Assembly: GCF_022045235.1 (NCBI RefSeq)
Contig: NW_027266270.1
Span: forward strand, 9,424,001-9,488,000
Direction of reading: 5' to 3'
Source of the DNA: Haliotis cracherodii
Taxonomy: Eukaryota
DNA: 64,000 nucleotides
The notes beneath the pieces are model-generated. The model did no database searches. It was not told the DNA's origin and saw only the letters and a list, made by a program, of their open reading frames with translations. Shown here piece by piece: positions 5,785-64,000 of the stretch. A program made the translations under genes and the position numbers. The stretch's first letter is position 1; the number at the start of each line of letters is the position of its first letter.

Positions 5785-5790
5785 AATAAA
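5785..5790 (+). terminator. Candidate polyadenylation signal
   Basis: AATAAA followed about 10-30 nt later by GT-rich GTGTGCGGGGGTTCTTGTGG. Confidence 0.55.
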
Positions 5791-5807
5791 CTATGTCGAG
5801 GTGTGCG

Positions 5808-6456: not shown

Positions 6457-6512
6457 ACACTTATTATTGTTCTGACCTTTTTAATGGATTATTGTTTTGT
6501 AGAATATCTTAC

Positions 6513-7037
6513 CTGCTACGTGTAGCCATTATGGCTTTGACTCCATGAACAGGAGCCTTCTCCTTCCCAACGAGAAAGGTGACGTCACACATCTCTGGCA
6601 TGTTTAGGATGAGGGAGAGACTGTCCTGTAAGTCCCCTGTGCTTTTAAGCATCATGACGTCACCCCGACCGGAGGACTGTGAGGGGTGAGAGCTGGATTG
6701 GCTGAAAGATCTTGACTTCGAGGTCGTGCTGACGCCTTCATCAGAGGAGTAGTCGCTTGAGTCATAGCCTGAAGAGGTACCTTCAGCTGGAATAAGAAAA
6801 CAAATCAGTTATGAAATAATATTTCATTTGTTGCAAATGTTAGTAAAGCTGAGTGTTGTTTCATGAACAAAATGTGTCCTTGAAATATACTTTGAAAAAA
6901 CCATCAAGGAATTATTATCCTGATGTGATAAAAGTGAATAATGCAAATGTCTCACCGTCTGCGTCATGACCAGTGTGGTCAATAGTTTCCATGGCCGAAG
7001 AGTCCAGAAGACAAAGTCGGGAATCGTAATGATTCAT
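6513..7037 (-). CDS. BTB/POZ gene copy 1, exons 1-2 only (6956-7037, 6513-6786); intron 2 interrupted by the Ngaro element
   Basis: Same exons as other copies (one synonymous CGT/CGA change); intron 2 runs into B2 at 6456. Confidence 0.8.
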
Positions 7038-7150
7038 GTTACTTGTTGTTAGATCTTATTGATAATGAAAGACAGAACTGATATTTGGTTAAACTCGGCG
7101 AATCTAAAGATCTAAGTATGTATCTCGATGTAATGTTTCCAAGATTGGAA

Positions 7151-7328
7151 TGCCTTCTTCCTCTACCAGACCAGCTTTATACCTTTGCGTATCACAACAC
7201 AAATGACAGAGTCATTACTACAACTACATGTCAGGATTAAGTCAATGTTGACACGAAGGCTTCAGCTTAGCACATTTTGCTAGTGGCACGTGCTGCACTT
7301 GTTAATGAGCTGACATCACGTGACCAAT
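7151..7328 (-). promoter_or_regulatory. Core/proximal promoter of the BTB gene (present in every unit, e.g. 11543-11720)
   Basis: Minus-strand TATAAA (7181-7176) 30 bp before an Inr-like GCATTC (A at 7151). CACGTG E-boxes at 7287 and 7317, CCAAT at 7324. Confidence 0.6.
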
Positions 7329-8360
7329 CTAAGAATAAGTGTTCTACGGTAATGTCGTCTGTTGTCAAAACACCGAGATAATAGAGTTTGGGTGATGATG
7401 TGTTTCGGGTGTTTGATTATTTAAGGATTTACGATATACGTGTTCATTTGTCGGTGATAAATGGTATTGTGTTATTAAGGATCCATTTGGAGTCAAGTTA
7501 TGTTTAATGCGAGTGGAACTTTTAGATGCTAATGATGTAAATGTAGTAACGGTATGTTGATGGAATTATACATTATCTACCTGTATACGTACGTGAATTA
7601 TTTGCACTTGAAATATAAATGTCTAGCGTTATAGATTCCACTCACTGAAAACAGCCATTGTGATTTCCTTATTGAAATAAAATTGAACTAAAATAGTTCT
7701 GTTATTGAACAGTGTATAAATATATAACTGATCTTTTTTGTTTCAATTTTTTCAAGTGCAAGTGTGATATGACAACAAAGTTAGAGTGTCAAATGATTTT
7801 TTATTGTTCATGTGTGCAAATGACACCCTGCTATTTCAATAAAATTTGTGTCAGCCAAAGTCATTTCATCGTGTCATTCGTCAAACAAACAGTTTGCTGA
7901 ACTGAACTTTATTGTACTCCGGATTACTCGTGACACATAACCACATCATTTGGGATTGAGCGGAGGCGCAGCGATTTGTTGAGTTGAGGGCTTGGCTATA
8001 GATGATATGCACAGTGAGGAGTATTGTTTAATCATAAATTGAATGTGTGATTGTACGATTGCTGATAGATGTTGTAGACAAGCTAGTCAAGTGGTACATG
8101 TTTTTTAAACAAATTGATTGGCAATCAAGGCGCTTTGATGAACAATCTTCCAACGTGTCACATATAACTAGAACCTTTGAAAACACAAAGACCACGTGCA
8201 CATTATCAGGAAATGGCACATGAGACTTGTAGTGATGACATTATTGATACACATGGTCCGCTCTGACTTCCGAAAAGCCAGAGACAGTTGCCAGTGACAT
8301 GAAATGGTTCTGAGACAATAATGTCAATACATGTTTCCTTTGTTATTTCCAGCATTTGCT

Positions 8361-8671
8361 ATAATAGATTCTGCCACGCAATGCATTCGCGACTACGATT
8401 AGCTTGTAGTGATCTCAGCTTACACAAAGCTCATAGAATGATTTCAAATAAGTCATCCTGCTCTTGTGGCGCTACTTGCGAAACTACAACTCATTATTTA
8501 TTTGGATGTCAATATTAGTACACACATAGAAATAATATGTTTGTTATCCAATTGGATACGATCTTGTGACCGTAAGATCCTAAGTGGAATATGGAAATGT
8601 TGCAAAAATCGGTAAGTAAAAGGGTAGATTTCATTCAGTCTGTGCATCGTTACATCTGTCACATTAAATGA
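8361..8671 (+). mobile_element. Degenerate 3' fragment of a LINE (CR1/L2-like) ORF2, present in every unit
   Basis: HSRLRLACSDL..H....I....SCSCG...ETTTHYLFGC..Y..RN, then frameshifted EYGN and FIQSVHRYICHIK. This resembles the C-terminal cysteine knuckle and end of CR1/L2 ORF2; stops and frameshifts are present. Confidence 0.7.
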
Positions 8672-9977
8672 AGCAATTAGGGTTCATTGTTCAAACACAT
8701 ACTAGTATCTTATAAGCAAAACCTTCCATTGTTGAGTCGTGTTATTGAATTAACATCTGAATGCCAGGCTATATGTGCTTCCTATGAAATCACAGCTCAT
8801 ACACTGATATCCCGTGCAGAATAGCTTGTAATGGATTGGCATCAACATAAGACATGGGCTTGTTTTCCAATCCAGTTTGATTTCAAGCAATAATTTTATT
8901 TCAACCATTCTCAAATAATCATTTACGTAAAGCCTAAGAAAAGCTTCAACTTTCCACACTTTCTAATTATGGTTACATGCACGCTCAGAAAAAAAAACTC
9001 TTTAGTGTTGTATTGTCTCAGACGTACGTTTGAAATATCAAAGATCATTAAAATTTACATGTGCAACATACGTTACACCTAATTATATACAAATGAGCTA
9101 ATGACATTAACATGCGTGTTCAAGTTCTTTTTACCACGAAAGCTCTTTGCAGATACAGTTGACAACAATGTGTCCTTTATTAATGAGATAAAATATGCAG
9201 TATTTCAGCTAAATATGGAAGGAAAGCCGCAAATGGCGTACAACTTCTAAATCTAGATTCAAACCAACAAACACTGGATTCTGGACGCAACTGTGCATAC
9301 AGAAATGCGGTGGTCGAGGCCACACATGTCAACAATGAAAATGAACGGATATGTATTTGGTATTTTTGTAACATTTTATTTTCTAAAAAAAATCGTAATT
9401 CTGATTAAATCGCAGTTCCTGTAATGCTCAGTTGAAATAATATATGATAATACATGTTCTTGAATGTATTGTATCTGTTCATTGTTACAACATAAACTGT
9501 CACCATGCAAGCAATGTGGAAATGTAAAACTTAAACAGGTTCATATTTTCTGCCAATACTGTGTAATGAACATAGTAATACATAACATGTGTCGCTATTT
9601 TTATACATTCACACTGACACTGGCAAGGAACATAAGTACGATGACACTGTTAAGTACTTGTCGGTATGCTTTGTTCCTTCACATTAACAACAACGTACAA
9701 TGTGCAAGTCAAGAATCATGTTTGACAATGCTATTGTCTTCACACACAGAGTGTCTTGGTGACTTTATCTTCGTCTTCGTCAACCACAGCTTTGTGACGC
9801 TCTAAACGTTATGGGACTGAGCGACAGTGACTGGTGTCTTCTTCTTCATTTCGTCGTCTTCGTCATCTTGAACAACAGGCTTGCTGCTGTTGGTTCATCC
9901 TCTCGTTGGGAACAGAGAATGTAGTGTGGATATTGATCCTACTGTTGGGAACCTTCATGTAAGCTCGGTTGCGGTTT

Positions 9978-11429
9978 TCATCTGGTTACACACGACAGCT
10001 GGAAAAGAGTAAAGTATCCAAAATTAGAACAGCAATAAAGACTATTTGATCATCTAATATTCGAAGTTCTTTGCAGTCTATATTTATCAATCCCTTAAAA
10101 ATCATTCGGTTCCTTGAAATGTTCCTCAACCAAATCAATTACATATACGTTTATCATGCGTGTGGCCCAAGTGTGGTCAATGCCAAGAGCATCTCAAGCT
10201 ACATACCTGGCAGATGAGTTTCTGTGCTGGTCGTTTATGTTGGTAGGTCCAGGCTAAATCCAGAAGGGCTAGACCATGTCCCTGACTTTGACATCTCTGG
10301 ATAAACTGCATACAGGCCGTTCGTAGGTCGGAGAATCCAAATTCCACAGATGCACAGAGTAATCCTGAAAGAACCGAGGACATATTGTAATGTGTTTGAT
10401 AAAATATTATCATGAAGGTGAAGTTCATGTTATGGATAATTGTGTGTGTTTCGCGCATGTGTCATCACGATTAGTGGAATGGCCATACTTTTGTGTTGAA
10501 ATGAATATCCCAGTTAAACAAATGAAGATAGTACTTACCAATCACATTGTTAAAACCGATGTTAGCTTTCCCTGAGTGGACGAATTTGAGAAACGCCTGA
10601 AAGTCTCCAATCTGGTAGTCAGGAATGGTGATGGTGAGTTTCTGTGAAAAGGGTGAGTCTTTGATCTTTTTGGTCTTGGGTCGCTCAACGGAGGACTGTT
10701 TCTGATGTTGAAGCAAAAGCTGATACATGTACCTAGAGAAAAGAAAGAAAAAATTGAAGACGATATTTAAACACAAACAGTCCAAAAATTGTTCCCATGT
10801 TGAGTACATTCACAGGGTATAAGAGCCAAATGTACTCTACTTAAACATACACTTATTATTGTTCTGACCTTTTTAATGGATTATTGTTTTGTAGAATATC
10901 TTACCTGCTTCGTGTAGCCATTATGGCTTTGACTCCATGAACAGGAGCCTTCTCCTTCCCAACGAGAAAGGTGACGTCACACATCTCTGGCATGTTTAGG
11001 ATGAGGGAGAGACTGTCCTGTAAGTCCCCTGTGCTTTTAAGCATCATGACGTCACCCCGACCGGAGGACTGTGAGGGGTGAGAGCTGGATTGGCTGAAAG
11101 ATCTTGACTTCGAGGTCGTGCTGACGCCTTCATCAGAGGAGTAGTCGCTTGAGTCATAGCCTGAAGAGGTACCTTCAGCTGGAATAAGAAAACAAATCAG
11201 TTATGAAATAATATTTCATTTGTTGCAAATGTTAGTAAAGCTGAGTGTTGTTTCATGAACAAAATGTGTCCTTGAAATATACTTTGAAAAAACCATCAAG
11301 GAATTATTATCCTGATGTGATAAAAGTGAATAATGCAAATGTCTCACCGTCTGCGTCATGACCAGTGTGGTCAATAGTTTCCATGGCCGAAGAGTCCAGA
11401 AGACAAAGTCGGGAATCGTAATGATTCAT
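9978..11429 (-). CDS. BTB/POZ protein, serine-enriched protein (gprs)-like, 242 aa, copy 2; exons 11348-11429, 10905-11178, 10539-10732, 10207-10364, 9978-9998
   Basis: All introns GT-AG with pyrimidine tracts and consistent phases (1,2,1,0). Translation MNHYDSRL...SSGYDSSDYSSDEG...LILNMPEMCDVTFLVGKEKAPVHGVKAIMATRSRYMYQLL...ITIPDYQIGDFQAFLKFVHSGKANIGFNNVIGLLCASVEFGFSDLRTACMQFI...LSCVTR* fits the BTB consensus. Confidence 0.9.
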
Positions 11430-14369
11430 GTTACTTGTTGTTAGATCTTATTGATAATGAAAGACAGAACTGATATTTGGTTAAACTCGGCGAATCTAAA
11501 GATCTAAGTATGTATCTCGATGTAATGTTTCCAAGATTGGAATGCCTTCTTCCTCTACCAGACCAGCTTTATACCTTTGCGTATCACAACACAAATGACA
11601 GAGTCATTACTACAACTACATGTCAGGATTAAGTCAATGTTGACACGAAGGCTTCAGCTTAGCACATTTTGCTAGTGGCACGTGCTGCACTTGTTAATGA
11701 GCTGACATCACGTGACCAATCTAAGAATAAGTGTTCTACGGTAATGTCGTCTGTTGTCAAAACACCGAGATAATAGAGTTTGGGTGATGATGTGTTTCGG
11801 GTGTTTGATTATTTAAGGATTTACGATATACGTGTTCATTTGTCGGTGATAAATGGTATTATGTTATTAAGGATCCATTTGGAGTCAAGTTATGTTTAAT
11901 GCGAGTGGAACTTTTAGATGCTAATGATGTAAATGTAGTAACGGTATGTTGATGGAATTATACATTATCTACCTGTATACGTACGTGAATTATTTGCACT
12001 TGAAATATAAATGTCTAGCGTTATAGATTCCACTCACTGAAAACAGCCATTGTGATTTCCTTATTGAAATAAAATTGAACTAAAATAGTTCTGTTATTGA
12101 ACAGTGTATAAATATATAACTGATCTCTTTTGTTTCAATTTTTTCAAGTGCAAGTGTGATATGACAACAAAGTTAGAGTGTCAAATGATTTTTTATTGTT
12201 CATGTGTGCAAATGACACCCTGCTATTTCAATAAAATTTGTGTCAGCCAAAGTCATTTCATCGTGTGATTCGTCAAACAAACAGTTTGCTGAACTGAACT
12301 TTATTGTACTCCGGATTACTCGTGACACATAACCACATCATTTGGGATTGAGCGGAGGCGCAGCGATTTGTTGAGTTGAGGGCTTGGCTATAGATGATAT
12401 GCACAGTGAGGAGTATTGTTTAATCATTAATTGAATGTGTGATTGTACGATTGCTGATAGATGTTGTAGACAAGCTAGTCAAGTGGTACATGTTTTTTAA
12501 ACAAATTGATTGGCAATCAAGGCGCTTTGATGAACAATCTTCCAACGTGTCACATATAACTAGAACCTTTGAAAACACAAAGACCACGTGCACATTATCA
12601 GGAAATGGCACATGAGACTTGTAGTGATGACATTATTGATACACATGGTCCGCTCTGACTTCCGAAAAGCCAGAGACAGTTGCCAGTGACATGAAATGGT
12701 TCTGAGACAATAATGTCAATACATGTTTCCTTTGTTATTTCCAGCATTTGCTATAATAGATTCTGCCACGCAATGCATTCGCGACTACGATTAGCTTGTA
12801 GTGATCTCAGCTTACACAAAGCTCATAGAATGATTTCAAATAAGTCATCCTGCTCTTGTGGCGCTACTTGCGAAACTACAACTCATTATTTATTTGGATG
12901 TCAATATTAGTACACACATAGAAATAATATGTTTGTTATCCAATTGGATACGATCTTGTGACCGTAAGATCCTAAGTGGAATATGGAAATGTTGCAAAAA
13001 TCGGTAAGTAAAAGGGTAGATTTCATTCAGTCTGTGCATCGTTACATCTGTCACATTAAATGACGCAATTAGGGTTCATTGTTCAAACACATACTAGTAT
13101 CTTATAAGCAAAACCTTCCATTGTTGAGTCGTGTTATTGAATTAACATCTGAATGCCAGGCTATATGTGCTTCCTATGAAATCACAGCTCATACACTGAT
13201 ATCCCGTGCAGAATAGCTTGTAATGGATTGGCATCAACATAAGACATGGGCTTGTTTTCCAATCCAGTTTGATTTCAAGCAATAATTTTATTTCAACCAT
13301 TCTCAAATAATCATTTACGTAAAGCCTAAGAAAAGCTTCAACTTTCCACACTTTCTAATTATGGTTACATGCACTCTCAGAAAAAAAAACTCTTTAGTGT
13401 TGTATTGTCTCAGACGTACGTTTGAAATATCAAAGATCATTAAAATTTACATGTGCAACATACGTTACACCTAATTATATACAAATGAGCTAATGACATT
13501 AACATGCGTGTTCAAGTTCTTTTTACCACGAAAGCTCTTTGCAGATACAGTTGACAACAATGTGTCCTTTATTAATGAGATAAAATATGCAGTATTTCAG
13601 CTAAATATGGAAGGAAAGCCGCAAATGGCGTACAACTTCTAAATCTAGATTCAAACCAACAAACACTGGATTCTGGACGCAACTGTGCATACAGAAATGC
13701 GGTGGTCGAGGCCACACATGTCAACAATGAAAATGAACGGATATGTATTTGGTATTTTTGTAACATTTTATTTTCTAAAAAAAATCGTAATTCTGATTAA
13801 ATCGCAGTTCCTGTAATGCTCAGTTGAAATAATATATGATAATACATGTTCTTGAATGTATTGTATCTGTTCATTGTTACAACATAAACTGTCACCATGC
13901 AAGCAATGTGGAAATGTAAAACTTAAACAGGTTCATATTTTCTGCCAATACTGTGTAATGAACATAGTAATACATAACATGTGTCGCTATTTTTATACAT
14001 TCACACTGACACTGGCAAGGAACATAAGTACGATGACACTGTTAAGTACTTGTCGGTATGCTTTGTTCCTTCACATTAACAACAACGTACAATGTGCAAG
14101 TCAAGAATCATGTTTGACAATGCTATTGTCTTCACACACAGAGTGTCTTGGTGACTTTATCTTCGTCTTCGTCAACCACAGCTTTGTGACGCTCTAAACG
14201 TTATGGGACTGAGCGACAGTGACTGGTGTCTTCTTCTTCATTTCGTCGTCTTCGTCATCTTGAACAACAGGCTTGCTGCTGTTGGTTCATCCTCTCGTTG
14301 GGAACAGAGAATGTAGTGTGGATATTGATCCTACTGTTGGGAACCTTCATGTAAGCTCGGTTGCGGTTT

Positions 14370-15821
14370 TCATCTGGTTACACACGACAGCTGGAAAAGA
14401 GTAAAGTATCCAAAATTAGAACAGCAATAAAGACTATTTGATCATCTAATATTCGAAGTTCTTTGCAGTCTATATTTATCAATCCCTTAAAAATCATTCG
14501 GTTCCTTGAAATGTTCCTCAACCAAATCAATTACATATACGTTTATCATGCGTGTGGCCCAAGTGTGGTCAATGCCAAGAGCATCTCAAGCTACATACCT
14601 GGCAGATGAGTTTCTGTGCTGGTCGTTTATGTTGGTAGGTCCAGGCTAAATCCAGAAGGGCTAGACCATGTCCCTGACTTTGACATCTCTGGATAAACTG
14701 CATACAGGCCGTTCGTAGGTCGGAGAATCCAAATTCCACAGATGCACAGAGTAATCCTGAAAGAACCGAGGACATATTGTAATGTGTTTGATAAAATATT
14801 ATCATGAAGGTGAAGTTCATGTTATGGATAATTGTGTGTGTTTCGCGCATGTGTCATCACGATTAGTGGAATGGCCATACTTTTGTGTTGAAATGAATAT
14901 CCCAGTTAAACAAATGAAGATAGTACTTACCAATCACATTGTTAAAACCGATGTTAGCTTTCCCTGAGTGGACGAATTTGAGAAACGCCTGAAAGTCTCC
15001 AATCTGGTAGTCAGGAATGGTGATGGTGAGTTTCTGTGAAAAGGGTGAGTCTTTGATCTTTTTGGTCTTGGGTCGCTCAACGGAGGACTGTTTCTGATGT
15101 TGAAGCAAAAGCTGATACATGTACCTAGAGAAAAGAAAGAAAAAATTGAAGACGATATTTAAACACAAACAGTCCAAAAATTGTTCCCATGTTGAGTACA
15201 TTCACAGGGTATAAGAGCCAAATGTACTCTACTTAAACATACACTTATTATTGTTCTGACCTTTTTAATGGATTATTGTTTTGTAGAATATCTTACCTGC
15301 TTCGTGTAGCCATTATGGCTTTGACTCCATGAACAGGAGCCTTCTCCTTCCCAACGAGAAAGGTGACGTCACACATCTCTGGCATGTTTAGGATGAGGGA
15401 GAGACTGTCCTGTAAGTCCCCTGTGCTTTTAAGCATCATGACGTCACCCCGACCGGAGGACTGTGAGGGGTGAGAGCTGGATTGGCTGAAAGATCTTGAC
15501 TTCGAGGTCGTGCTGACGCCTTCATCAGAGGAGTAGTCGCTTGAGTCATAGCCTGAAGAGGTACCTTCAGCTGGAATAAGAAAACAAATCAGTTATGAAA
15601 TAATATTTCATTTGTTGCAAATGTTAGTAAAGCTGAGTGTTGTTTCATGAACAAAATGTGTCCTTGAAATATACTTTGAAAAAACCATCAAGGAATTATT
15701 ATCCTGATGTGATAAAAGTGAATAATGCAAATGTCTCACCGTCTGCGTCATGACCAGTGTGGTCAATAGTTTCCATGGCCGAAGAGTCCAGAAGACAAAG
15801 TCGGGAATCGTAATGATTCAT
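14370..15821 (-). CDS. BTB/POZ gene copy 3 (5 exons)
   Basis: Copy 2 exon structure at offset +4392; Q159. Confidence 0.88.
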
Positions 15822-18761
15822 GTTACTTGTTGTTAGATCTTATTGATAATGAAAGACAGAACTGATATTTGGTTAAACTCGGCGAATCTAAAGATCTAAG
15901 TATGTATCTCGATGTAATGTTTCCAAGATTGGAATGCCTTCTTCCTCTACCAGACCAGCTTTATACCTTTGCGTATCACAACACAAATGACAGAGTCATT
16001 ACTACAACTACATGTCAGGATTAAGTCAATGTTGACACGAAGGCTTCAGCTTAGCACATTTTGCTAGTGGCACGTGCTGCACTTGTTAATGAGCTGACAT
16101 CACGTGACCAATCTAAGAATAAGTGTTCTACGGTAATGTCGTCTGTTGTCAAAACACCGAGATAATAGAGTTTGGGTGATGATGTGTTTCGGGTGTTTGA
16201 TTATTTAAGGATTTACGATATACGTGTTCATTTGTCGGTGATAAATGGTATTATGTTATTAAGGATCCATTTGGAGTCAAGTTATGTTTAATGCGAGTGG
16301 AACTTTTAGATGCTAATGATGTAAATGTAGTAACGGTATGTTGATGGAATTATACATTATCTACCTGTATACGTACGTGAATTATTTGCACTTGAAATAT
16401 AAATGTCTAGCGTTATAGATTCCACTCACTGAAAACAGCCATTGTGATTTCCTTATTGAAATAAAATTGAACTAAAATAGTTCTGTTATTGAACAGTGTA
16501 TAAATATATAACTGATCTTTTTTGTTTCAATTTTTTCAAGTGCAAGTGTGATATGACAACAAAGTTAGAGTGTCAAATGATTTTTTATTGTTCATGTGTG
16601 CAAATGACACCCTGCTATTTCAATAAAATTTGTGTCAGCCAAAGTCATTTCATCGTGTGATTCGTCAAACAAACAGTTTGCTGAACTGAACTTTATTGTA
16701 CTCCGGATTACTCGTGACACATAACCACATCATTTGGGATTGAGCGGAGGCGCAGCGATTTGTTGAGTTGAGGGCTTGGCTATAGATGATATGCACAGTG
16801 AGGAGTATTGTTTAATCATTAATTGAATGTGTGATTGTACGATTGCTGATAGATGTTGTAGACAAGCTAGTCAAGTGGTACATGTTTTTTAAACAAATTG
16901 ATTGGCAATCAAGGCGCTTTGATGAACAATCTTCCAACGTGTCACATATAACTAGAACCTTTGAAAACACAAAGACCACGTGCACATTATCAGGAAATGG
17001 CACATGAGACTTGTAGTGATGACATTATTGACACACATGGTCCGCTCTGACTTCCGAAAAGCCAGAGACAGTTGCCAGTGACATGAAATGGTTCTGAGAC
17101 AATAATGTCAATACATGTTTCCTTTGTTATTTCCAGCATTTGCTATAATAGATTCTGCCACGCAATGCATTCGCGACTACGATTAGCTTGTAGTGATCTC
17201 AGCTTACACAAAGCTCATAGAATGATTTCAAATAAGTCATCCTGCTCTTGTGGCGCTACTTGCGAAACTACAACTCATTATTTATTTGGATGTCAATATT
17301 AGTACACACATAGAAATAATATGTTTGTTATCCAATTGGATACGATCTTGTGACCGTAAGATCCTAAGTGGAATATGGAAATGTTGCAAAAATCGGTAAG
17401 TAAAAGGGTAGATTTCATTCAGTCTGTGCATCGTTACATCTGTCACATTAAATGACGCAATTAGGGTTCATTGTTCAAACACATACTAGTATCTTATAAG
17501 CAAAACCTTCCATTGTTGAGTCGTGTTATTGAATTAACATCTGAATGCCAGGCTATATGTGCTTCCTATGAAATCACAGCTCATACACTGATATCCCGTG
17601 CAGAATAGCTTGTAATGGATTGGCATCAACATAAGACATGGGCTTGTTTTCCAATCCAGTTTGATTTCAAGCAATAATTTTATTTCAACCATTCTCAAAT
17701 AATCATTTACGTAAAGCCTAAGAAAAGCTTCAACTTTCCACACTTTCTAATTATGGTTACATGCACTCTCAGAAAAAAAAACTCTTTAGTGTTGTATTGT
17801 CTCAGACGTACGTTTGAAATATCAAAGATCATTAAAATTTACATGTGCAACATACGTTACACCTAATTATATACAAATGAGCTAATGACATTAACATGCG
17901 TGTTCAAGTTCTTTTTACCACGAAAGCTCTTTGCAGATACAGTTGACAACAATGTGTCCTTTATTAATGAGATAAAATATGCAGTATTTCAGCTAAATAT
18001 GGAAGGAAAGCCGCAAATGGCGTACAACTTCTAAATCTAGATTCAAACCAACAAACACTGGATTCTGGACGCAACTGTGCATACAGAAATGCGGTGGTCG
18101 AGGCCACACATGTCAACAATGAAAATGAACGGATATGTATTTGGTATTTTTGTAACATTTTATTTTCTAAAAAAAATCGTAATTCTGATTAAATCGCAGT
18201 TCCTGTAATGCTCAGTTGAAATAATATATGATAATACATGTTCTTGAATGTATTGTATCTGTTCATTGTTACAACATAAACTGTCACCATGCAAGCAATG
18301 TGGAAATGTAAAACTTAAACAGGTTCATATTTTCTGCCAATACTGTGTAATGAACATAGTAATACATAACATGTGTCGCTATTTTTATACATTCACACTG
18401 ACACTGGCAAGGAACATAAGTACGATGACACTGTTAAGTACTTGTCGGTATGCTTTGTTCCTTCACATTAACAACAACGTACAATGTGCAAGTCAAGAAT
18501 CATGTTTGACAATGCTATTGTCTTCACACACAGAGTGTCTTGGTGACTTTATCTTCGTCTTCGTCAACCACAGCTTTGTGACGCTCTAAACGTTATGGGA
18601 CTGAGCGACAGTGACTGGTGTCTTCTTCTTCATTTCGTCGTCTTCGTCATCTTGAACAACAGGCTTGCTGCTGTTGGTTCATCATCTCGTTGGGAACAGA
18701 GAATGTAGTGTGGATATTGATCCTACTGTTGGGAACCTTCATGTAAGCTCGGTTGCGGTTT

Positions 18762-20213
18762 TCATCTGGTTACACACGACAGCTGGAAAAGAGTAAAGTA
18801 TCCAAAATTAGAACAGCAATAAAGACTATTTGATCATCTAATATTCGAAGTTCTTTGCAGTCTATATTTATCAATCCCTTAAAAATCATTCGGTTCCTTG
18901 AAATGTTCCTCAACCAAATCAATTACATATACGTTTATCATGCGTGTGGCCCAAGTGTGGTCAATGCCAAGAGCATCTCAAGCTACATACCTGGCAGATG
19001 AGTTTCTGTGCTGGTCGTTTATGTTGGTAGGTCCAGGCTAAATCCAGAAGGGCTAGACCATGTCCCTGACTTTGACATCTCTGGATAAACTGCATACAGG
19101 CCGTTCGTAGGTCGGAGAATCCAAATTCCACAGATGCACAGAGTAATCCTGAAAGAACCGAGGACATATTGTAATGTGTTTGATAAAATATTATCATGAA
19201 GGTGAAGTTCATGTTATGGATAATTGTGTGTGTTTCGCGCATGTGTCATCACGATTAGTGGAATGGCCATACTTTTGTGTTGAAATGAATATCCCAGTTA
19301 AACAAATGAAGATAGTACTTACCAATCACATTGTTAAAACCGATGTTAGCTTTCCCTGAGTGGACGAATTTGAGAAACGCCTGAAAGTCTCCAATCTGGT
19401 AGTCAGGAATGGTGATGGTGAGTTTCTGTGAAAAGGGTGAGTCTTTGATCTTTTTGGTCTTGGGTCGCTCAACGGAGGACTGTTTCTGATGTTGAAGCAA
19501 AAGCTGATACATGTACCTAGAGAAAAGAAAGAAAAAATTGAAGACGATATTTAAACACAAACAGTCCAAAAATTGTTCCCATGTTGAGTACATTCACAGG
19601 GTATAAGAGCCAAATGTACTCTACTTAAACATACACTTATTATTGTTCTGACCTTTTTAATGGATTATTGTTTTGTAGAATATCTTACCTGCTTCGTGTA
19701 GCCATTATGGCTTTGACTCCATGAACAGGAGCCTTCTCCTTCCCAACGAGAAAGGTGACGTCACACATCTCTGGCATGTTTAGGATGAGGGAGAGACTGT
19801 CCTGTAAGTCCCCTGTGCTTTTAAGCATCATGACGTCACCCCGACCGGAGGACTGTGAGGGGTGAGAGCTGGATTGGCTGAAAGATCTTGACTTCGAGGT
19901 CGTGCTGACGCCTTCATCAGAGGAGTAGTCGCTTGAGTCATAGCCTGAAGAGGTACCTTCAGCTGGAATAAGAAAACAAATCAGTTATGAAATAATATTT
20001 CATTTGTTGCAAATGTTAGTAAAGCTGAGTGTTGTTTCATGAACAAAATGTGTCCTTGAAATATACTTTGAAAAAACCATCAAGGAATTATTATCCTGAT
20101 GTGATAAAAGTGAATAATGCAAATGTCTCACCGTCTGCGTCATGACCAGTGTGGTCAATAGTTTCCATGGCCGAAGAGTCCAGAAGACAAAGTCGGGAAT
20201 CGTAATGATTCAT
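18762..20213 (-). CDS. BTB/POZ gene copy 4 (5 exons)
   Basis: Same exon structure; Q159. Confidence 0.88.
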
Positions 20214-40725: not shown

Positions 40726-42177
40726 TCATCTGGTTACACACGACAGCTGGAAAAGAGTAAAGTATCCAAAATTAGAACAGCAATAAAGACTATTTGATCA
40801 TCTAATATTCGAAGTTCTTTGCAGTCTATATTTATCAATCCCTTAAAAATCATTCGGTTCCTTGAAATGTTCCTCAACCAAATCAATTACATATACGTTT
40901 ATCATGCGTGTGGCCCAAGTGTGGTCAATGCCAAGAGCATCTCAAGCTACATACCTGGCAGATGAGTTTCTGTGCTGGTCGTTTATGTTGGTAGGTCCAG
41001 GCTAAATCCAGAAGGGCTAGACCATGTCCCTGACTTTGACATCTCTGGATAAACTGCATACAGGCCGTTCGTAGGTCGGAGAATCCAAATTCCACAGATG
41101 CACAGAGTAATCCTGAAAGAACCGAGGACATATTGTAATGTGTTTGATAAAATATTATCATGAAGGTGAAGTTCATGTTATGGATAATTGTGTGTGTTTC
41201 GCGCATGTGTCATCACGATTAGTGGAATGGCCATACTTTTGTGTTGAAATGAATATCCCAGTTAAACAAATGAAGATAGTACTTACCAATCACATTGTTA
41301 AAACCGATGTTAGCTTTCCCTGAGTGGACGAATTTGAGAAACGCCTGAAAGTCTCCAATGTGGTAGTCAGGAATGGTGATGGTGAGTTTCTGTGAAAAGG
41401 GTGAGTCTTTGATCTTTTTGGTCTTGGGTCGCTCAACGGAGGACTGTTTCTGATGTTGAAGCAAAAGCTGATACATGTACCTAGAGAAAAGAAAGAAAAA
41501 ATTGAAGACGATATTTAAACACAAACAGTCCAAAAATTGTTCCCATGTTGAGTACATTCACAGGGTATAAGAGCCAAATGTACTCTACTTAAACATACAC
41601 TTATTATTGTTCTGACCTTTTTAATGGATTATTGTTTTGTAGAATATCTTACCTGCTTCGTGTAGCCATTATGGCTTTGACTCCATGAACAGGAGCCTTC
41701 TCCTTCCCAACGAGAAAGGTGACGTCACACATCTCTGGCATGTTTAGGATGAGGGAGAGACTGTCCTGTAAGTCCCCTGTGCTTTTAAGCATCATGACGT
41801 CACCCCGACCGGAGGACTGTGAGGGGTGAGAGCTGGATTGGCTGAAAGATCTTGACTTCGAGGTCGTGCTGACGCCTTCATCAGAGGAGTAGTCGCTTGA
41901 GTCATAGCCTGAAGAGGTACCTTCAGCTGGAATAAGAAAACAAATCAGTTATGAAATAATATTTCATTTGTTGCAAATGTTAGTAAAGCTGAGTGTTGTT
42001 TCATGAACAAAATGTGTCCTTGAAATATACTTTGAAAAAACCATCAAGGAATTATTATCCTGATGTGATAAAAGTGAATAATGCAAATGTCTCACCGTCT
42101 GCGTCATGACCAGTGTGGTCAATAGTTTCCATGGCCGAAGAGTCCAGAAGACAAAGTCGGGAATCGTAATGATTCAT
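40726..42177 (-). CDS. BTB/POZ gene copy 9 (5 exons)
   Basis: Same exon structure; H159. Confidence 0.88.
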
Positions 42178-53905: not shown

Positions 53906-55357
53906 TCATCTGGTTACACACGACAGCTGGAAAAGAGTAAAGTATCCAAAATTAGAACAGCAATAAAGACTATTTGATCATCTAATATTCGAAGTTCTTT
54001 GCAGTCTATATTTATCAATCCCTTAAAAATCATTCGGTTCCTTGAAATGTTCCTCAACCAAATCAATTACATATACGTTTATCATGCGTGTGGCCCAAGT
54101 GTGGTCAATGCCAAGAGCATCTCAAGCTACATACCTGGCAGATGAGTTTCTGTGCTGGTCGTTTATGTTGGTAGGTCCAGGCTAAATCCAGAAGGGCTAG
54201 ACCATGTCCCTGACTTTGACATCTCTGGATAAACTGCATACAGGCCGTTCGTAGGTCGGAGAATCCAAATTCCACAGATGCACAGAGTAATCCTGAAAGA
54301 ACCGAGGACATATTGTAATGTGTTTGATAAAATATTATCATGAAGGTGAAGTTCATGTTATGGATAATTGTGTGTGTTTCGCGCATGTGTCATCACGATT
54401 AGTGGAATGGCCATACTTTTGTGTTGAAATGAATATCCCAGTTAAACAAATGAAGATAGTACTTACCAATCACATTGTTAAAACCGATGTTAGCTTTCCC
54501 TGAGTGGACGAATTTGAGAAACGCCTGAAAGTCTCCAATGTGGTAGTCAGGAATGGTGATGGTGAGTTTCTGTGAAAAGGGTGAGTCTTTGATCTTTTTG
54601 GTCTTGGGTCGCTCAACGGAGGACTGTTTCTGATGTTGAAGCAAAAGCTGATACATGTACCTAGAGAAAAGAAAGAAAAAATTGAAGACGATATTTAAAC
54701 ACAAACAGTCCAAAAATTGTTCCCATGTTGAGTACATTCACAGGGTATAAGAGCCAAATGTACTCTACTTAAACATACACTTATTATTGTTCTGACCTTT
54801 TTAATGGATTATTGTTTTGTAGAATATCTTACCTGCTTCGTGTAGCCATTATGGCTTTGACTCCATGAACAGGAGCCTTCTCCTTCCCAACGAGAAAGGT
54901 GACGTCACACATCTCTGGCATGTTTAGGATGAGGGAGAGACTGTCCTGTAAGTCCCCTGTGCTTTTAAGCATCATGACGTCACCCCGACCGGAGGACTGT
55001 GAGGGGTGAGAGCTGGATTGGCTGAAAGATCTTGACTTCGAGGTCGTGCTGACGCCTTCATCAGAGGAGTAGTCGCTTGAGTCATAGCCTGAAGAGGTAC
55101 CTTCAGCTGGAATAAGAAAACAAATCAGTTATGAAATAATATTTCATTTGTTGCAAATGTTAGTAAAGCTGAGTGTTGTTTCATGAACAAAATGTGTCCT
55201 TGAAATATACTTTGAAAAAACCATCAAGGAATTATTATCCTGATGTGATAAAAGTGAATAATGCAAATGTCTCACCGTCTGCGTCATGACCAGTGTGGTC
55301 AATAGTTTCCATGGCCGAAGAGTCCAGAAGACAAAGTCGGGAATCGTAATGATTCAT
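53906..55357 (-). CDS. BTB/POZ gene copy 12 (5 exons)
   Basis: Same exon structure; H159. Confidence 0.88.
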
Positions 55358-58299
55358 GTTACTTGTTGTTAGATCTTATTGATAATGAAAGACAGAACTG
55401 ATATTTGGTTAAACTCGGCGAATCTAAAGATCTAAGTATGTATCTCGATGTAATGTTTCCAAGATTGGAATGCCTTCTTCCTCTACCAGACCAGCTTTAT
55501 ACCTTTGCGTATCACAACACAAATGACAGAGTCATTACTACAACTACATGTCAGGATTAAGTCAATGTTGACACGAAGGCTTCAGCTTAGCACATTTTGC
55601 TAGTGGCACGTGCTGCACTTGTTAATGAGCTGACATCACGTGACCAATCTAAGAATAAGTGTTCTACGGTAATGTCGTCTGTTGTCAAAACACCGAGATA
55701 ATAGAGTTTGGGTGATGATGTGTTTCGGGTGTTTGATTATTTAAGGATTTACGATATACGTGTTCATTTGTCGGTGATAAATGGTATTATGTTATTAAGG
55801 ATCCATTTGGAGTCAAGTTATGTTTAATGCGAGTGGAACTTTTAGATGCTAATGATGTAAATGTAGTAACGGTATGTTGATGGAATTATACATTATCTAC
55901 CTGTATACGTACGTGAATTATTTGCACTTGAAATATAAATGTCTAGCGTTATAGATTCCACTCACTGAAAACAGCCATTGTGATTTCCTTATTGAAATAA
56001 AATTGAACTAAAATAGTTCTGTTATTGAACAGTGTATAAATATATAACTGATCTTTTTTGTTTCAATTTTTTCAAGTGCAAGTGTGATATGACAACAAAG
56101 TTAGAGTGTCAAATGATTTTTTATTGTTCATGTGTGCAAATGACACCCTGCTATTTCAATAAAATTTGTGTCAGCCAAAGTCATTTCATCGTGTGATTCG
56201 TCAAACAAACAGTTTGCTGAACTGAACTTTATTGTACTCCGGATTACTCGTGACACATAACCACATCATTTGGGATTGAGCGGAGGCGCAGCGATTTGTT
56301 GAGTTGAGGGCTTGGCTATAGATGATATGCACAGTGAGGAGTATTGTTTAATCATAAATTGAATGTGTGATTGTACGATTGCTGATAGATGTTGTAGACA
56401 AGCTAGTCAAGTGGTACATGTTTTTTAAACAAATTGATTGGCAATCAAGGCGCTTTGATGAACAATCTTCCAACGTGTCACATATAACTAGAACCTTTGA
56501 AAACACAAAGACCACGTGCACATTATCAGGAAATGGCACATGAGACTTGTAGTGATGACATTATTGACACACTTGGTCCGCTCTGACTTCCGAAAAGCCA
56601 GAGACAGTTGCCAGTGACATGAAATGGTTCTGAGACAATAATGTCAATACATGTTTCCTTTGTTATTTCCAGCATTTGCTACAATAGATTCTGCCACGCA
56701 ATGCATTCGCGACTACGATTAGCTTGTAGTGATCTCAGCTTACACAAAGCTCATAGAATGATTTCAAATAAGTCATCCTGCTCTTGTGGCGCTACTTGCG
56801 AAACTACAACTCATTATTTATTTGGATGTCAATATTAGTACACACATAGAAATAATATGTTTGTTATCCAATTGGATACGATCTTGTGACCGTAAGATCC
56901 TAAGTGGAATATGGAAATGTTGCAAAAATCGGTAAGTAAAAGGGTAGATTTCATTCAGTCTGTGCATCGTTACATCTGTCACATTAAATGAAGCAATTAG
57001 GGTTCATTGTTCAAACACATACTAGTATCTTATAAGCAAAACCTTCCATTGTTGAGTCGTGTTATTGAATTAACATCTGAATGCCAGGCTATATGTGCTT
57101 CCTATGAAATCACAGCTCATACACTGATATCCCGTGCAGAATAGCTTGTAATGGATTGGCATCAACATAAGACATGGGCTTGTTTTCCAATCCAGTTTGA
57201 TTTCAAGCAATAATTTTATTTCAACCATTCTCAAATAATCATTTACGTAAAGCCTAAGAAAAGCTTCAACTTTCCACACTTTCTAATTATGGTTACATGC
57301 ACTCTCAGAAAAAAACAACTCTTTAGTGTTGTATTGTCTCAGACGTACGTTTGAAATATCAAAGATCATTAAAATTTACATGTGCAACATACGTTACACC
57401 TAATTATATACAAATGAGCTAATGACATTAACATGCGTGTTCAAGTTCTTTTTACCACGAAAGCTCTTTGCAGATACAGTTGACAACAATGTGTCCTTTA
57501 TTAATGAGATAAAATATGCAGTATTTCAGCTAAATATGGAAGGAAAGCCGCAAATGGCGTACAACTTCTAAATCTAGATTCAAACCAACAAACACTGGAT
57601 TCTGGACGCAACTGTGCATACAGAAATGCGGTGGTCGAGGCCACACATGTCAACAATGAAAATGAATGGATATGTATTTGGTATTTTTGTAACATTTTAT
57701 TTTTTAGAAAAAAATCGTAATTCTGATTAAATCGCAGTTCCTGTAATGCTCAGTTGAAATAATATATGATAATACATGTTCTTGAATGTATTGTATCTGT
57801 TCATTGTTACAACATAAACTGTCACCATGCAAGCAATGTGGAAATGTAAAACTTAAACAGGTTCATATTTTCTGCCAATACTGTTTAATGAACATAGTAA
57901 TACATAACATGTGTCGCTATTTTTATACATTCACACTGACACTGGCAAGGAACATAAGTACGATGACACTGTTAAGTACTTGTCGGTATGCTTTGTTCCT
58001 TCACATTAACAACAACGTACAATGTGCAAGTCAAGAATCGTGTTTGACAATGCTATTGTCTTCACACACAGAGTGTCTTGGTGACTTTATCTTCGTCTTC
58101 GTCAACCACAGCTTTGTGACGCTCTAAACGTTATGGGACTGAGCGACAGTGACTGGTGTCTTCTTCTTCATTTCGTCGTCTTCGTCATCTTGAACAACAG
58201 GCTTGCTGCTGTTGGTTCATCCTCTCGTTGGGAACAGAGAATGTAGTGTGGATATTGATCCTACTGTTGGGAACCTTCATGTAAGCTCGGTTGCGGTTT

Positions 58300-59751
58300 T
58301 CATCTGGTTACACACGACAGCTGGAAAAGAGTAAAGTATCCAAAATTAGAACAGCAATAAAGACTATTTGATCATCTAATATTCGAAGTTCTTTGCAGTC
58401 TATATTTATCAATCCCTTAAAAATCATTCGGTTCCTTGAAATGTTCCTCAACCAAATCAATTACATATACGTTTATCATGCGTGTGGCCCAAGTGTGGTC
58501 AATGCCAAGAGCATCTCAAGCTACATACCTGGCAGATGAGTTTCTGTGCTGGTCGTTTATGTTGGTAGGTCCAGGCTAAATCCAGAAGGGCTAGACCATG
58601 TCCCTGACTTTGACATCTCTGGATAAACTGCATACAGGCCGTTCGTAGGTCGGAGAATCCAAATTCCACAGATGCACAGAGTAATCCTGAAAGAACCGAG
58701 GACATATTGTAATGTGTTTGATAAAATATTATCATGAAGGTGAAGTTCATGTTATGGATAATTGTGTGTGTTTCGCGCATGTGTCATCACGATTAGTGGA
58801 ATGGCCATACTTTTGTGTTGAAATGAATATCCCAGTTAAACAAATGAAGATAGTACTTACCAATCACATTGTTAAAACCGATGTTAGCTTTCCCTGAGTG
58901 GACGAATTTGAGAAACGCCTGAAAGTCTCCAATGTGGTAGTCAGGAATGGTGATGGTGAGTTTCTGTGAAAAGGGTGAGTCTTTGATCTTTTTGGTCTTG
59001 GGTCGCTCAACGGAGGACTGTTTCTGATGTTGAAGCAAAAGCTGATACATGTACCTAGAGAAAAGAAAGAAAAAATTGAAGACGATATTTAAACACAAAC
59101 AGTCCAAAAATTGTTCCCATGTTGAGTACATTCACAGGGTATAAGAGCCAAATGTACTCTACTTAAACATACACTTATTATTGTTCTGACCTTTTTAATG
59201 GATTATTGTTTTGTAGAATATCTTACCTGCTTCGTGTAGCCATTATGGCTTTGACTCCATGAACAGGAGCCTTCTCCTTCCCAACGAGAAAGGTGACGTC
59301 ACACATCTCTGGCATGTTTAGGATGAGGGAGAGACTGTCCTGTAAGTCCCCTGTGCTTTTAAGCATCATGACGTCACCCCGACCGGAGGACTGTGAGGGG
59401 TGAGAGCTGGATTGGCTGAAAGATCTTGACTTCGAGGTCGTGCTGACGCCTTCATCAGAGGAGTAGTCGCTTGAGTCATAGCCTGAAGAGGTACCTTCAG
59501 CTGGAATAAGAAAACAAATCAGTTATGAAATAATATTTCATTTGTTGCAAATGTTAGTAAAGCTGAGTGTTGTTTCATGAACAAAATGTGTCCTTGAAAT
59601 ATACTTTGAAAAAACCATCAAGGAATTATTATCCTGATGTGATAAAAGTGAATAATGCAAATGTCTCACCGTCTGCGTCATGACCAGTGTGGTCAATAGT
59701 TTCCATGGCCGAAGAGTCCAGAAGACAAAGTCGGGAATCGTAATGATTCAT
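58300..59751 (-). CDS. BTB/POZ gene copy 13 (5 exons)
   Basis: Same exon structure; H159. Confidence 0.88.
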
Positions 59752-62693
59752 GTTACTTGTTGTTAGATCTTATTGATAATGAAAGACAGAACTGATATTT
59801 GGTTAAACTCGGCGAATCTAAAGATCTAAGTATGTATCTCGATGTAATGTTTCCAAGATTGGAATGCCTTCTTCCTCTACCAGACCAGCTTTATACCTTT
59901 GCGTATCACAACACAAATGACAGAGTCATTACTACAACTACATGTCAGGATTAAGTCAATGTTGACACGAAGGCTTCAGCTTAGCACATTTTGCTAGTGG
60001 CACGTGCTGCACTTGTTAATGAGCTGACATCACGTGACCAATCTAAGAATAAGTGTTCTACGGTAATGTCGTCTGTTGTCAAAACACCGAGATAATAGAG
60101 TTTGGGTGATGATGTGTTTCGGGTGTTTGATTATTTAAGGATTTACGATATACGTGTTCATTTGTCGGTGATAAATGGTATTATGTTATTAAGGATCCAT
60201 TTGGAGTCAAGTTATGTTTAATGCGAGTGGAACTTTTAGATGCTAATGATGTAAATGTAGTAACGGTATGTTGATGGAATTATACATTATCTACCTGTAT
60301 ACGTACGTGAATTATTTGCACTTGAAATATAAATGTCTAGCGTTATAGATTCCACTCACTGAAAACAGCCATTGTGATTTCCTTATTGAAATAAAATTGA
60401 ACTAAAATAGTTCTGTTATTGAACAGTGTATAAATATATAACTGATCTTTTTTGTTTCAATTTTTTCAAGTGCAAGTGTGATATGACAACAAAGTTAGAG
60501 TGTCAAATGATTTTTTATTGTTCATGTGTGCAAATGACACCCTGCTATTTCAATAAAATTTGTGTCAGCCAAAGTCATTTCATCGTGTCATTCGTCAAAC
60601 AAACAGTTTGCTGAACTGAACTTTATTGTACTCCGGATTACTCGTGACACATAACCACATCATTTGGGATTGAGCGGAGGCGCAGCGATTTGTTGAGTTG
60701 AGGGCTTGGCTATAGATGATATGCACAGTGAGGAGTATTGTTTAATCATAAATTGAATGTGTGATTGTACGATTGCTGATAGATGTTGTAGACAAGCTAG
60801 TCAAGTGGTACATGTTTTTTAAACAAATTGATTGGCAATCAAGGCGCTTTGATGAACAATCTTCCAACGTGTCACATATAACTAGAACCTTTGAAAACAC
60901 AAAGACCACGTGCACATTATCAGGAAATGGCACATGAGACTTGTAGTGATGACATTATTGACACACATGGTCCGCTCTGACTTCCGAAAAGCCAGAGACA
61001 GTTGCCAGTGACATGAAATGGTTCTGAGACAATAATGTCAATACATGTTTCCTTTGTTATTTCCAGCATTTGCTACAATAGATTCTGCCACGCAATGCAT
61101 TCGCGACTACGATTAGCTTGTAGTGATCTCAGCTTACACAAAGCTCATAGAATGATTTCAAATAAGTCATCCTGCTCTTGTGGCGCTACTTGCGAAACTA
61201 CAACTCATTATTTATTTGGATGTCAATATTAGTACACACATAGAAATAATATGTTTGTTATCCAATTGGATACGATCTTGTGACCGTAAGATCCTAAGTG
61301 GAATATGGAAATGTTGCAAAAATCGGTAAGTAAAAGGGTAGATTTCATTCAGTCTGTGCATCGTTACATCTGTCACATTAAATGAAGCAATTAGGGTTCA
61401 TTGTTCAAACACATACTAGTATCTTATAAGCAAAACCTTCCATTGTTGAGTCGTGTTATTGAATTAACATCTGAATGCCAGGCTATATGTGCTTCCTATG
61501 AAATCACAGCTCATACACTGATATCCCGTGCAGAATAGCTTGTAATGGATTGGCATCAACATAAGACATGGGCTTGTTTTCCAATCCAGTTTGATTTCAA
61601 GCAATAATTTTATTTCAACCATTCTCAAATAATCATTTACGTAAAGCCTAAGAAAAGCTTCAACTTTCCACACTTTCTAATTATGGTTACATGCACTCTC
61701 AGAAAAAAACAACTCTTTAGTGTTGTATTGTCTCAGACGTACGTTTGAAATATCAAAGATCATTAAAATTTACATGTGCAACATACGTTACACCTAATTA
61801 TATACAAATGAGCTAATGACATTAACATGCGTGTTCAAGTTCTTTTTACCACGAAAGCTCTTTGCAGATACAGTTGACAACAATGTGTCCTTTATTAATG
61901 AGATAAAATATGCAGTATTTCAGCTAAATATGGAAGGAAAGCCGCAAATGGCGTACAACTTCTAAATCTAGATTCAAACCAACAAACACTGGATTCTGGA
62001 CGCAACTGTGCATACAGAAATGCGGTGGTCGAGGCCACACATGTCAACAATGAAAATGAATGGATATGTATTTGGTATTTTTGTAACATTTTATTTTTTA
62101 GAAAAAAATCGTAATTCTGATTAAATCGCAGTTCCTGTAATGCTCAGTTGAAATAATATATGATAATACATGTTCTTGAATGTATTGTATCTGTTCATTG
62201 TTACAACATAAACTGTCACCATGCAAGCAATGTGGAAATGTAAAACTTAAACAGGTTCATATTTTCTGCCAATACTGTTTAATGAACATAGTAATACATA
62301 ACATGTGTCGCTATTTTTATACATTCACACTGACACTGGCAAGGAACATAAGTACGATGACACTGTTAAGTACTTGTCGGTATGCTTTGTTCCTTCACAT
62401 TAACAACAACGTACAATGTGCAAGTCAAGAATCGTGTTTGACAATGCTATTGTCTTCACACACAGAGTGTCTTGGTGACTTTATCTTCGTCTTCGTCAAC
62501 CACAGCTTTGTGACGCTCTAAACGTTATGGGACTGAGCGACAGTGACTGGTGTCTTCTTCTTCATTTCGTCGTCTTCGTCATCTTGAACAACAGGCTTGC
62601 TGCTGTTGGTTCATCCTCTCGTTGGGAACAGAGAATGTAGTGTGGATATTGATCCTACTGTTGGGAACCTTCATGTAAGCTCGGTTGCGGTTT

Positions 62694-63894
62694 TCATCTG
62701 GTTACACACGACAGCTGGAAAAGAGTAAAGTATCCAAAATTAGAACAGCAATAAAGACTATTTGATCATCTAATATTCGAAGTTCTTTGCAGTCTATATT
62801 TATCAATCCCTTAAAAATCATTCGGTTCCTTGAAATGTTCCTCAACCAAATCAATTACATATACGTTTATCATGCGTGTGGCCCAAGTGTGGTCAATGCC
62901 AAGAGCATCTCAAGCTACATACCTGGCAGATGAGTTTCTGTGCTGGTCGTTTATGTTGGTAGGTCCAGGCTAAATCCAGAAGGGCTAGACCATGTCCCTG
63001 ACTTTGACATCTCTGGATAAACTGCATACAGGCCGTTCGTAGGTCGGAGAATCCAAATTCCACAGATGCACAGAGTAATCCTGAAAGAACCGAGGACATA
63101 TTGTAATGTGTTTGATAAAATATTATCATGAAGGTGAAGTTCATGTTATGGATAATTGTGTGTGTTTCGCGCATGTGTCATCACGATTAGTGGAATGGCC
63201 ATACTTTTGTGTTGAAATGAATATCCCAGTTAAACAAATGAAGATAGTACTTACCAATCACATTGTTAAAACCGATGTTAGCTTTCCCTGAGTGGACGAA
63301 TTTGAGAAACGCCTGAAAGTCTCCAATGTGGTAGTCAGGAATGGTGATGGTGAGTTTCTGTGAAAAGGGTGAGTCTTTGATCTTTTTGGTCTTGGGTCGC
63401 TCAACGGAGGACTGTTTCTGATGTTGAAGCAAAAGCTGATACATGTACCTAGAGAAAAGAAAGAAAAAATTGAAGACGATATTTAAACACAAACAGTCCA
63501 AAAATTGTTCCCATGTTGAGTACATTCACAGGGTATAAGAGCCAAATGTACTCTACTTAAACATACACTTATTATTGTTCTGACCTTTTTAATGGATTAT
63601 TGTTTTGTAGAATATCTTACCTGCTTCGTGTAGCCATTATGGCTTTGACTCCATGAACAGGAGCCTTCTCCTTCCCAACGAGAAAGGTGACGTCACACAT
63701 CTCTGGCATGTTTAGGATGAGGGAGAGACTGTCCTGTAAGTCCCCTGTGCTTTTAAGCATCATGACGTCACCCCGACCGGAGGACTGTGAGGGGTGAGAG
63801 CTGGATTGGCTGAAAGATCTTGACTTCGAGGTCGTGCTGACGCCTTCATCAGAGGAGTAGTCGCTTGAGTCATAGCCTGAAGAGGTACCTTCAG
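62694..63894 (-). CDS. BTB/POZ gene copy 14, exons 2-5 (exon 1 beyond window end)
   Basis: Same exon structure, truncated by the window edge; H159. Confidence 0.85.
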
Positions 63895-64000
63895 CTGGAA
63901 TAAGAAAACAAATCAGTTATGAAATAATATTTCATTTGTTGCAAATGTTAGTAAAGCTGAGTGTTGTTTCTTGAACAAAATGTGTCCTTGAAATATACTT

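Follow-up and report, generated by a model that had tools for sequence, protein, structure and literature searches.

A homogeneous tandem array of five-exon BTB genes in the abalone Haliotis cracherodii

Architecture and homogeneity of the array

The window analysed here is a stretch of 64,000 nucleotides of Haliotis cracherodii (contig NW_027266270.1, positions 9,424,001 to 9,488,000, assembly GCF_022045235.1). Self-comparison revealed a head-to-tail array that begins at position 6457 and extends past the window end at 64000, with 13 full units of 4,392 or 4,394 bp followed by 436 bp of a further unit. The unit starts are 6457, 10849 and so on up to 63565, and identity between units is 99.7-99.9% (headline figure, 99.8%). 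The unit is AT-rich (GC about 38%) and carries on the minus strand a gene of five exons (729 nt) encoding a BTB-domain protein of 242 amino acids. At its left border the array adjoins a retrotransposon of the Ngaro type. The initial annotation had recognised the array and reported at least 14 near-identical BTB genes; the array was recovered, and the gene count is corrected to 12 complete and two partial copies.

In all 12 complete copies, the four introns have GT-AG borders and neither internal stops nor frameshifts were found. The only amino-acid variants among them are S13F (one copy) and Q159H (six copies), in agreement with the initial annotation; Q159H is also present in the last copy, which lacks exon 1 within the window. 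The gene straddles the unit boundary as it was first drawn, because position 6457 lies inside intron 2. Of the earlier proposal that each 4.39-kb unit is a full transcription unit, the five exons and the AATAAA signal stand, and the promoter is a candidate only (TATAAA at 7181).

Among the 13 full units, 27 columns are variable, of which 15 are shared and 12 are private to one unit. They define 12 distinct sequences, or 10 haplotypes when shared sites alone are counted. The mean divergence among units is 0.21%, and the heterozygosity of the H. cracherodii reference animal is given as 1.56% (PMC9709981). Two units thus differ about seven times less than two alleles of the species do, and therefore the amplification or homogenisation of the array is recent. 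The four-gamete test was failed by 48 of 105 site pairs, with a minimum of four recombination events (Rm = 4), and adjacent units were more similar than distant ones (Mantel r 0.49, p 0.002). The units exchange sequence, whether through gene conversion or through unequal crossing-over. All of these figures agree with the recent amplification or concerted evolution that was first proposed. The further claim that introns and spacers are as homogeneous as exons holds roughly: the coding sequence (CDS) contains 3 of the 28 variable columns where 4.6 would be expected (p = 0.61; two non-synonymous and one synonymous), and the span from ATG to stop contains 4 of 28 against 9.3 expected (p = 0.04, uncorrected).

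Units 9 and 11 (starting at 41597 and 50383) are identical, and units 7 and 10 (32811 and 45991), three units apart, have a common and distinct haplotype in their right halves; these are traces of multi-unit duplication. In unit 1, which adjoins the retrotransposon, the left sites resemble those of units 8-11 and not those of its neighbours, units 2-5, which are separated from each other by 1-4 sites. No Rfam match was obtained at E <= 1 in window positions 1-11500, ARAGORN predicted no tRNA, and a repeat search of the unit found nothing of note inside it.

Gene model, transcript evidence and the border element

The gene model was compared with reads and contigs from four of 21 listed sequencing runs. 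In contigs of run X13, which comes from a related organism (organism C) and was guessed to be RNA, introns 1, 3 and 4 were seen as CT..AC joints at the predicted bases (Table 1). Together with a Pfam match to BTB (PF00651; 54.6 bits in the H. cracherodii protein model P0007, against a gathering cut-off of 20.5), these joints support the first description of a BTB gene with real introns. Several observations weigh against the gene model: X13 listed no joint for intron 2, it is RNA only by guess and from an organism other than the array's own, run X14 yielded unspliced contigs over the unit, and no recorded RNA run was among the listed matches to the unit. Three guessed-RNA runs of organism A share next to no words with the unit, which counts neither way. 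The five-exon structure is therefore backed by data from a close relative and not by data from the species that carries the array. Within the 3' untranslated region (UTR; 9466-9901), X13 and run X7 (organism B) each contained two sequence groups, about 3-4% and 8-9% from the window, and therefore organisms B and C have a second close paralogue.

Table 1 Features of the window, with gene coordinates given for the first complete copy unless a particular copy is named
Feature	Position	Strand	Basis or remark
Tandem array	6457-64000	.	Self-comparison; 13 full units + 436 bp
Exon 1, coding part	11348-11429	-	Recurs at intervals of about 4.39 kb, last at 59670-59751
Exon 2, Ser/Asp-rich tail and BTB start	10905-11178	-	14 copies; Pfam BTB
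SSGYDS motif (residues 32-37), candidate beta-TrCP-type phosphodegron	11150-11167	-	Conserved in short relatives; resembles SSGYFS; putative function
Exon 3, BTB middle	10539-10732	-	13 copies; Q159H site at 10612
Exon 4, BTB end and two 3-box-like helices	10207-10364	-	13 copies
Exon 5, coding part (6 codons + stop)	9978-9998	-	X13 joint; short C-terminus matched by H. asinina P0008/P0010
Candidate 3' UTR, ending at AATAAA (9380-9375)	9375-9977	-	X13 contigs reach 9466; 3' end candidate
Spacer and candidate promoter (TATAAA 7181; CACGTG 7322 and 7292)	7038-9374	.	Pattern matches only; no tRNA, Rfam match or notable internal repeat
X13 splice joint, intron 1	6786 to 6956		Contigs
X13 splice joint, intron 3	10363 to 10538		Contigs
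X13 splice joint, intron 4	9998 to 10207		Contigs
Edge copy with intact exons 1-2; retrotransposon inserted in intron 2	6513-7037	-	Exons 3-5 outside window
Last copy, exons 2-5	62694-63894	-	Exon 1 beyond window end
Ngaro-type tyrosine-recombinase retrotransposon	1-6456	+	Antisense to BTB gene; 5' end just outside window
Ngaro gag-position frame	145-1404	+	No Pfam match
Ngaro reverse transcriptase (RT)/RNase H (RH) frame	1157-3010	+	Pfam
Ngaro tyrosine recombinase (YR) frame	2902-3921	+	Pfam tyrosine recombinase
Ngaro GDSL/SGNH frame, after YR	3821-4513	+	Pfam

The N-terminus encoded by exon 1 resembles those of the H. rubra proteins P0002 and P0004. Two other C-termini were considered and rejected as the main form. 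A stretch of the 3' UTR (9800-9930, minus strand) is coding-like and rich in charged residues, and is read as the C-terminus by the H. rufescens model P0001; that frame runs into a stop in every copy of the window, and the acceptor used in X13 is the one at 9998, upstream of the stretch. In P0007, exon 4 (of the 62923-63080 type) is joined to exon 2 of the next unit (of the 6513-6786 type) in another frame. This form was rejected on the X13 acceptor at 9998 and on the H. asinina proteins P0008 and P0010, which end in the same way as the five-exon model. The exon 4-exon 2 join may have arisen in annotation, as an artefact of the array, or from a circle of exons 2-4 whose back-splice was mapped as a forward one; it was not among the joints listed in X13. 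Upstream of the gene, two CACGTG motifs, an ATTGG and an octamer resembling the cAMP response element cluster at 7292-7328, about 280 bp from the ATG. The promoter patterns, including this cluster, lacked a chance control and were excluded as evidence.

The initial annotation had missed the Ngaro element at 1-6456. The element is young and apparently intact, and is inserted in intron 2 of the edge BTB copy. It shows split direct repeats: B1 (4625-5279) and B2 (5802-6456) are 655 bp long and 99.2% alike, and positions 1-22 equal 5489-5510 (the A1/A2 end), only the last 22 bp of A1 being within the window. The frames (gag-position, RT/RH, YR and SGNH) and the A1...B1-A2-B2 arrangement resemble those described for the Xenopus Ngaro element DIRS-53_XT, but the abalone element has B repeats of 655 bp (152 bp in Xenopus) and about 290 bp between A2 and B2 (PMC9210276). 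In X7 and X13 contigs the element end at 6456 is joined to other flanks, and elements of this family are plentiful in organisms A and B. The array may continue to the left of the element, because the insertion lies inside an intron of the edge copy. A joint between 10848 and 6457, found in X18 (a raw-read run of organism A), X14 and X7, was rejected as a tandem junction in other organisms, as it represents only the continuity of intron 2.

A short BTB protein and its mollusc relatives

The array protein is identical at 147 of 148 positions to P0007, which is labelled as a 'serine-enriched protein-like' model, at 201 of 221 to the H. rufescens orthologue P0001, and at 128 of 153 to its H. asinina counterpart. 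Profile searches retrieved 165 relatives, many of them named (best 120 listed), and 1,183 representatives at E <= 0.001 (best 150 listed). Long forms of the 'serine-enriched protein' family share the database label of the array protein and have a homologous BTB domain (profile E 1e-42 to 1e-51), but they carry a BACK domain and are mostly 370-1,300 amino acids long, whereas the array protein ends after two helices and bears an SSGY[DE]S motif towards its N-terminus. BACK (PF07707) was found in 15 of 15 long forms scanned, and gave no match in P0007, P0001, P0004-6 or any of four short forms scanned. The open reading frame of the array gene ends six codons into exon 5, the acceptor of which is confirmed in X13. 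Among the 120 listed matches, the named short forms without BACK are from gastropods and bivalves, and the longer forms, mostly with BACK, are from a sponge, hemichordates, arthropods and a chiton. The array gene is one of the paralogues in a branch of short forms within this BTB family (GPRS-like; gprs in Drosophila), a branch that is probably restricted to molluscs.

A midpoint-rooted tree was built from 35 chosen rows (34 of 249 proteins and the window protein). The Haliotis paralogues fall into orthologous groups, and several of them lie on common contigs. P0001, H. asinina P0008 and two sister copies of H. rubra (support 100/90) share a group with the array gene. Clusters with 8-19 near-identical members recur in Haliotis, Mytilus and Dreissena (P0001, 12; P0182, 12; P0174, 19; P0031, 9; P0029, 8). 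On this comparison of proteins, the array is the youngest layer, and the extreme case, of an older Haliotis cluster under birth-and-death turnover with fresh duplicates; members of the clusters may also be alleles, isoforms or sequences of other species, which speaks against this view. Among the papers listed by literature searches on 'serine-enriched protein', BTB and mollusc expansion, none describes the short mollusc family; the one listed under the family name concerns yeast. The main texts of PMC9936805, PMC13229213 and PMC12627906 do not mention 'serine-enriched' or 'BTB', and their supplements, which lay outside the scope of the search, may list such genes. Within the limits of these searches, the mollusc short BTB/3-box family with its conserved motif is undescribed.

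The protein fold was examined in an AlphaFold2 model of P0001 and not of the window protein itself, which should be held against its use here. The model has a low-confidence tail (residues 1-60) and a predicted local distance difference test score (pLDDT) of about 90 or more across most of residues 71-230. Residues 59-237 matched the BTB/3-box regions of KEAP1 (Z 13.7, root-mean-square deviation 4.7, 159 aligned) and SPOP (Z 13.4, 4.9, 149 aligned); NPR1 and transcription-factor BTBs tie with them on Z. In the model, helices 206-214 and 220-228 align with the 3-box ranges of KEAP1, SPOP and KLHL11. A homodimer prediction scored 0.66 against 0.00 for the best control, with contact agreement of at least 90% between runs and pLDDT of at least 81, and joins the chains through the usual swapped N-terminal strand. 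The score mark was reached by 21 of 30 solved microbial pairs, 7 of 16 animal pairs and 0 of 30 eukaryotic single chains, and the pass is likely owed to likeness to solved BTB dimers. A Pfam scan for a substrate domain found BTB only, with no remainder of BACK and no Kelch or MATH, and the rest of the protein is predicted to be disordered. In outline, the modelled protein has a disordered tail rich in Ser and Asp, a BTB domain that dimerises by strand swapping, and two 3-box-like helices. The predicted BTB fold, swapped dimer and two-helix extension align with the BTB/3-box of the Cul3 adaptors SPOP, KEAP1 and KLHL11. High-affinity binding to Cul3 is reported to depend critically on the 3-box (PMC3597819). 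Unlike these proteins, the array protein has no MATH or Kelch substrate domain; identity to them is 14-22%, and its binding to Cul3 is putative.

The tail of the array protein contains SSGYDS, a DSGxxS-type motif lying in the low-pLDDT region. Of 102 short forms whose tail is 60 amino acids or longer, 78 contain the pattern [ST]SGY[DES]S, against a shuffled mean of 0.04, as does one of 24 long forms; the count left out 123 of 249 proteins that have no such tail or no detectable BTB start. Two points temper this result: the count is inflated, since the search profile contained the motif and the matches are related, and the motif is absent from the remaining 24 short forms. As side observations, 25 of 91 short forms, mostly bivalve among those named, end in [ST]x[VLI], which we take to be a class-I PDZ-type tail (shuffled mean 3.4; 25 was reached by 0 of 2000 shuffles), and the array protein does not have it. 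A DSG-type motif near an end (e.g. DSGIES) was seen in 6 of 63 long forms (P0053, P0054, P0067, P0076, P0229 and P0236; no chance control), hinting that degron-like motifs may recur in the serine-enriched family.

Listed variants of the beta-TrCP degron include SSGYFS (PMC5909936). Based on the model and the motif, we propose that the array protein would bind Cul3 through its BTB/3-box without a folded substrate reader. Because no such reader would be brought to Cul3, the protein may act stoichiometrically, either by titrating Cul3 or by capping longer BTB-BACK relatives. Phosphorylation of SSGYDS and the Skp1-Cul1-F-box (SCF) ligase with beta-TrCP would keep it short-lived. Copy number could then matter for output, but may equally drift. 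The array protein is thus probably a short-lived Cul3-binding regulator.

Origin of the array and alternative explanations

The array has several-kb head-to-tail units that are near-identical and exchange sequence, as macrosatellites do. The suggestion that such an array is unusual for a BTB adaptor is not supported, since the family itself is multicopy in many molluscs and comparable systems exist in mammals. In mouse, Btbd35f/Gmcl1l/Mgclh are BTB-named genes, presumably encoding BTB proteins of a lineage that we take to be different from that of the abalone gene. They are likewise amplified to many copies; their X linkage, expression in spermatids and co-amplification with Slx/Sly, to whose conflict they are tied (PMC7743899), are features described for the mouse genes. 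The human RS447/USP17 macrosatellite has units of 4.7 kb, each with a protein-coding gene of the ubiquitin pathway, in 20-103 head-to-tail copies, and CT47 (4.8 kb), TAF11-like (3.4 kb) and D4Z4 (3.3 kb) are further gene-bearing human macrosatellites (PMC5687341). The array is therefore a known kind of structure. It differs from RS447/USP17 in that the gene is unrelated, the unit is AT-rich with a five-exon BTB gene, and the array is known here from one assembled sequence. On balance, we favour with fair confidence the reading that a family evolving by birth and death here contains an array comparable to RS447/USP17, which was homogenised recently and encodes a probably short-lived Cul3-binding regulator. 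A more far-reaching version is unlikely as a whole, namely that the short mollusc BTB/3-box proteins are substrate-less Cul3 decoys with a beta-TrCP phosphodegron as off-switch, linking SCF to cullin-3 RING ligases, and that in this abalone selection acts on a macrosatellite whose varying copy number sets their dose, for instance in the response to stress or disease.

Selection on copy number is plausible at most, and we consider it improbable that copy number was raised by selection, for instance through disease, for a higher dose of an inducible regulator of stress or immune responses. Such selection would fit the intactness of all 12 complete copies and the repeated amplification of the family in molluscs, and a degron-bearing stoichiometric regulator would be the kind of gene with dose effects. 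However, the intact copies need no selection, because there are just 28 variable sites and the variation in the CDS does not differ from neutral. In addition, USP17 level is reported to be independent of RS447 copy number (PMC5687341), and simple patterns for heat shock elements or NF-kB-like sites gave no match in the 463 bp upstream of the gene.

Somewhat less likely still is a smaller real cluster of about 3-6 copies that was over-expanded or misordered by the assembler, or a large array private to the assembled animal. The 57-kb array is longer than HiFi reads (N50 16 kb in the published H. cracherodii assembly, from which the window is assumed to descend), and the identity of units 9 and 11 and the few differences among units 2-5 also fit over-expansion. 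Read depth also speaks for fewer copies when taken at face value. In raw reads of X18, from another sample of organism A, the unit depth was 1.26x, where one haploid copy of a 1.18-Gb genome is expected to give 1.64x if all letters are usable abalone DNA, or 0.63x if only the roughly 58 fitted letters per read are counted. This corresponds to 0.8-2 haploid copies, a figure that is uncalibrated as the window offers no single-copy control. The library has short inserts with adapter read-through, 271 of 279 reads fit only partly (about 58 letters each), and the abalone share of the library is uncertain. Therefore the X18 depth is a floor, yet it does not confirm 13 or more copies. In contrast, a stretch of 180 bp contains six distinct haplotypes and one of 1 kb contains nine, which is not a stitching artefact of a few templates. 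This argues for real copies, because a diploid locus of one or two copies gives at most four haplotypes. Most variants are shared substitutions and not homopolymer errors, which also counts against over-expansion. The ratio of unit depth to Ngaro B repeat depth was 0.10 in X18 and 0.03 in X7 (about 3-fold, by hand arithmetic), a weak indication against a smaller cluster that assumes similar Ngaro loads and relies on summed contig depth, which is no copy number. We thus regard a real array of about the assembled size as highly probable for the assembled animal, a judgement that does not extend to the array size in other animals.

A selfish or conflict locus, such as a sex-linked ampliconic gene or a drive component, was suggested in the initial annotation and has the mouse Btbd35f/Mgclh analogy in its favour, but is very improbable, since the branches are short (0.04 for the array protein and 0.11 for the H. 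rufescens orthologue) and so give no sign of an arms race, 128 of 153 residues are retained in H. asinina, the family is old and widespread in molluscs, and both variants fall outside conserved positions (D, E, Q, S, H and others occur at position 159 in 53 rows).

The recently homogenised array is an ordinary structure, yet a clean case in an abalone, in what is probably an endangered species. Reads from such an array pile up or get filtered in scans of single-nucleotide polymorphisms, and therefore an effect of its copy number may have been invisible. Copy number can be typed from the depth of existing resequencing data. Of greater use is a by-product of the analysis, a mollusc BTB/3-box family that is widespread, has duplicated repeatedly and carries a strongly conserved degron-like motif. 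If its members were regulated Cul3 decoys, they would represent a new way of tuning ubiquitin ligases in molluscs.

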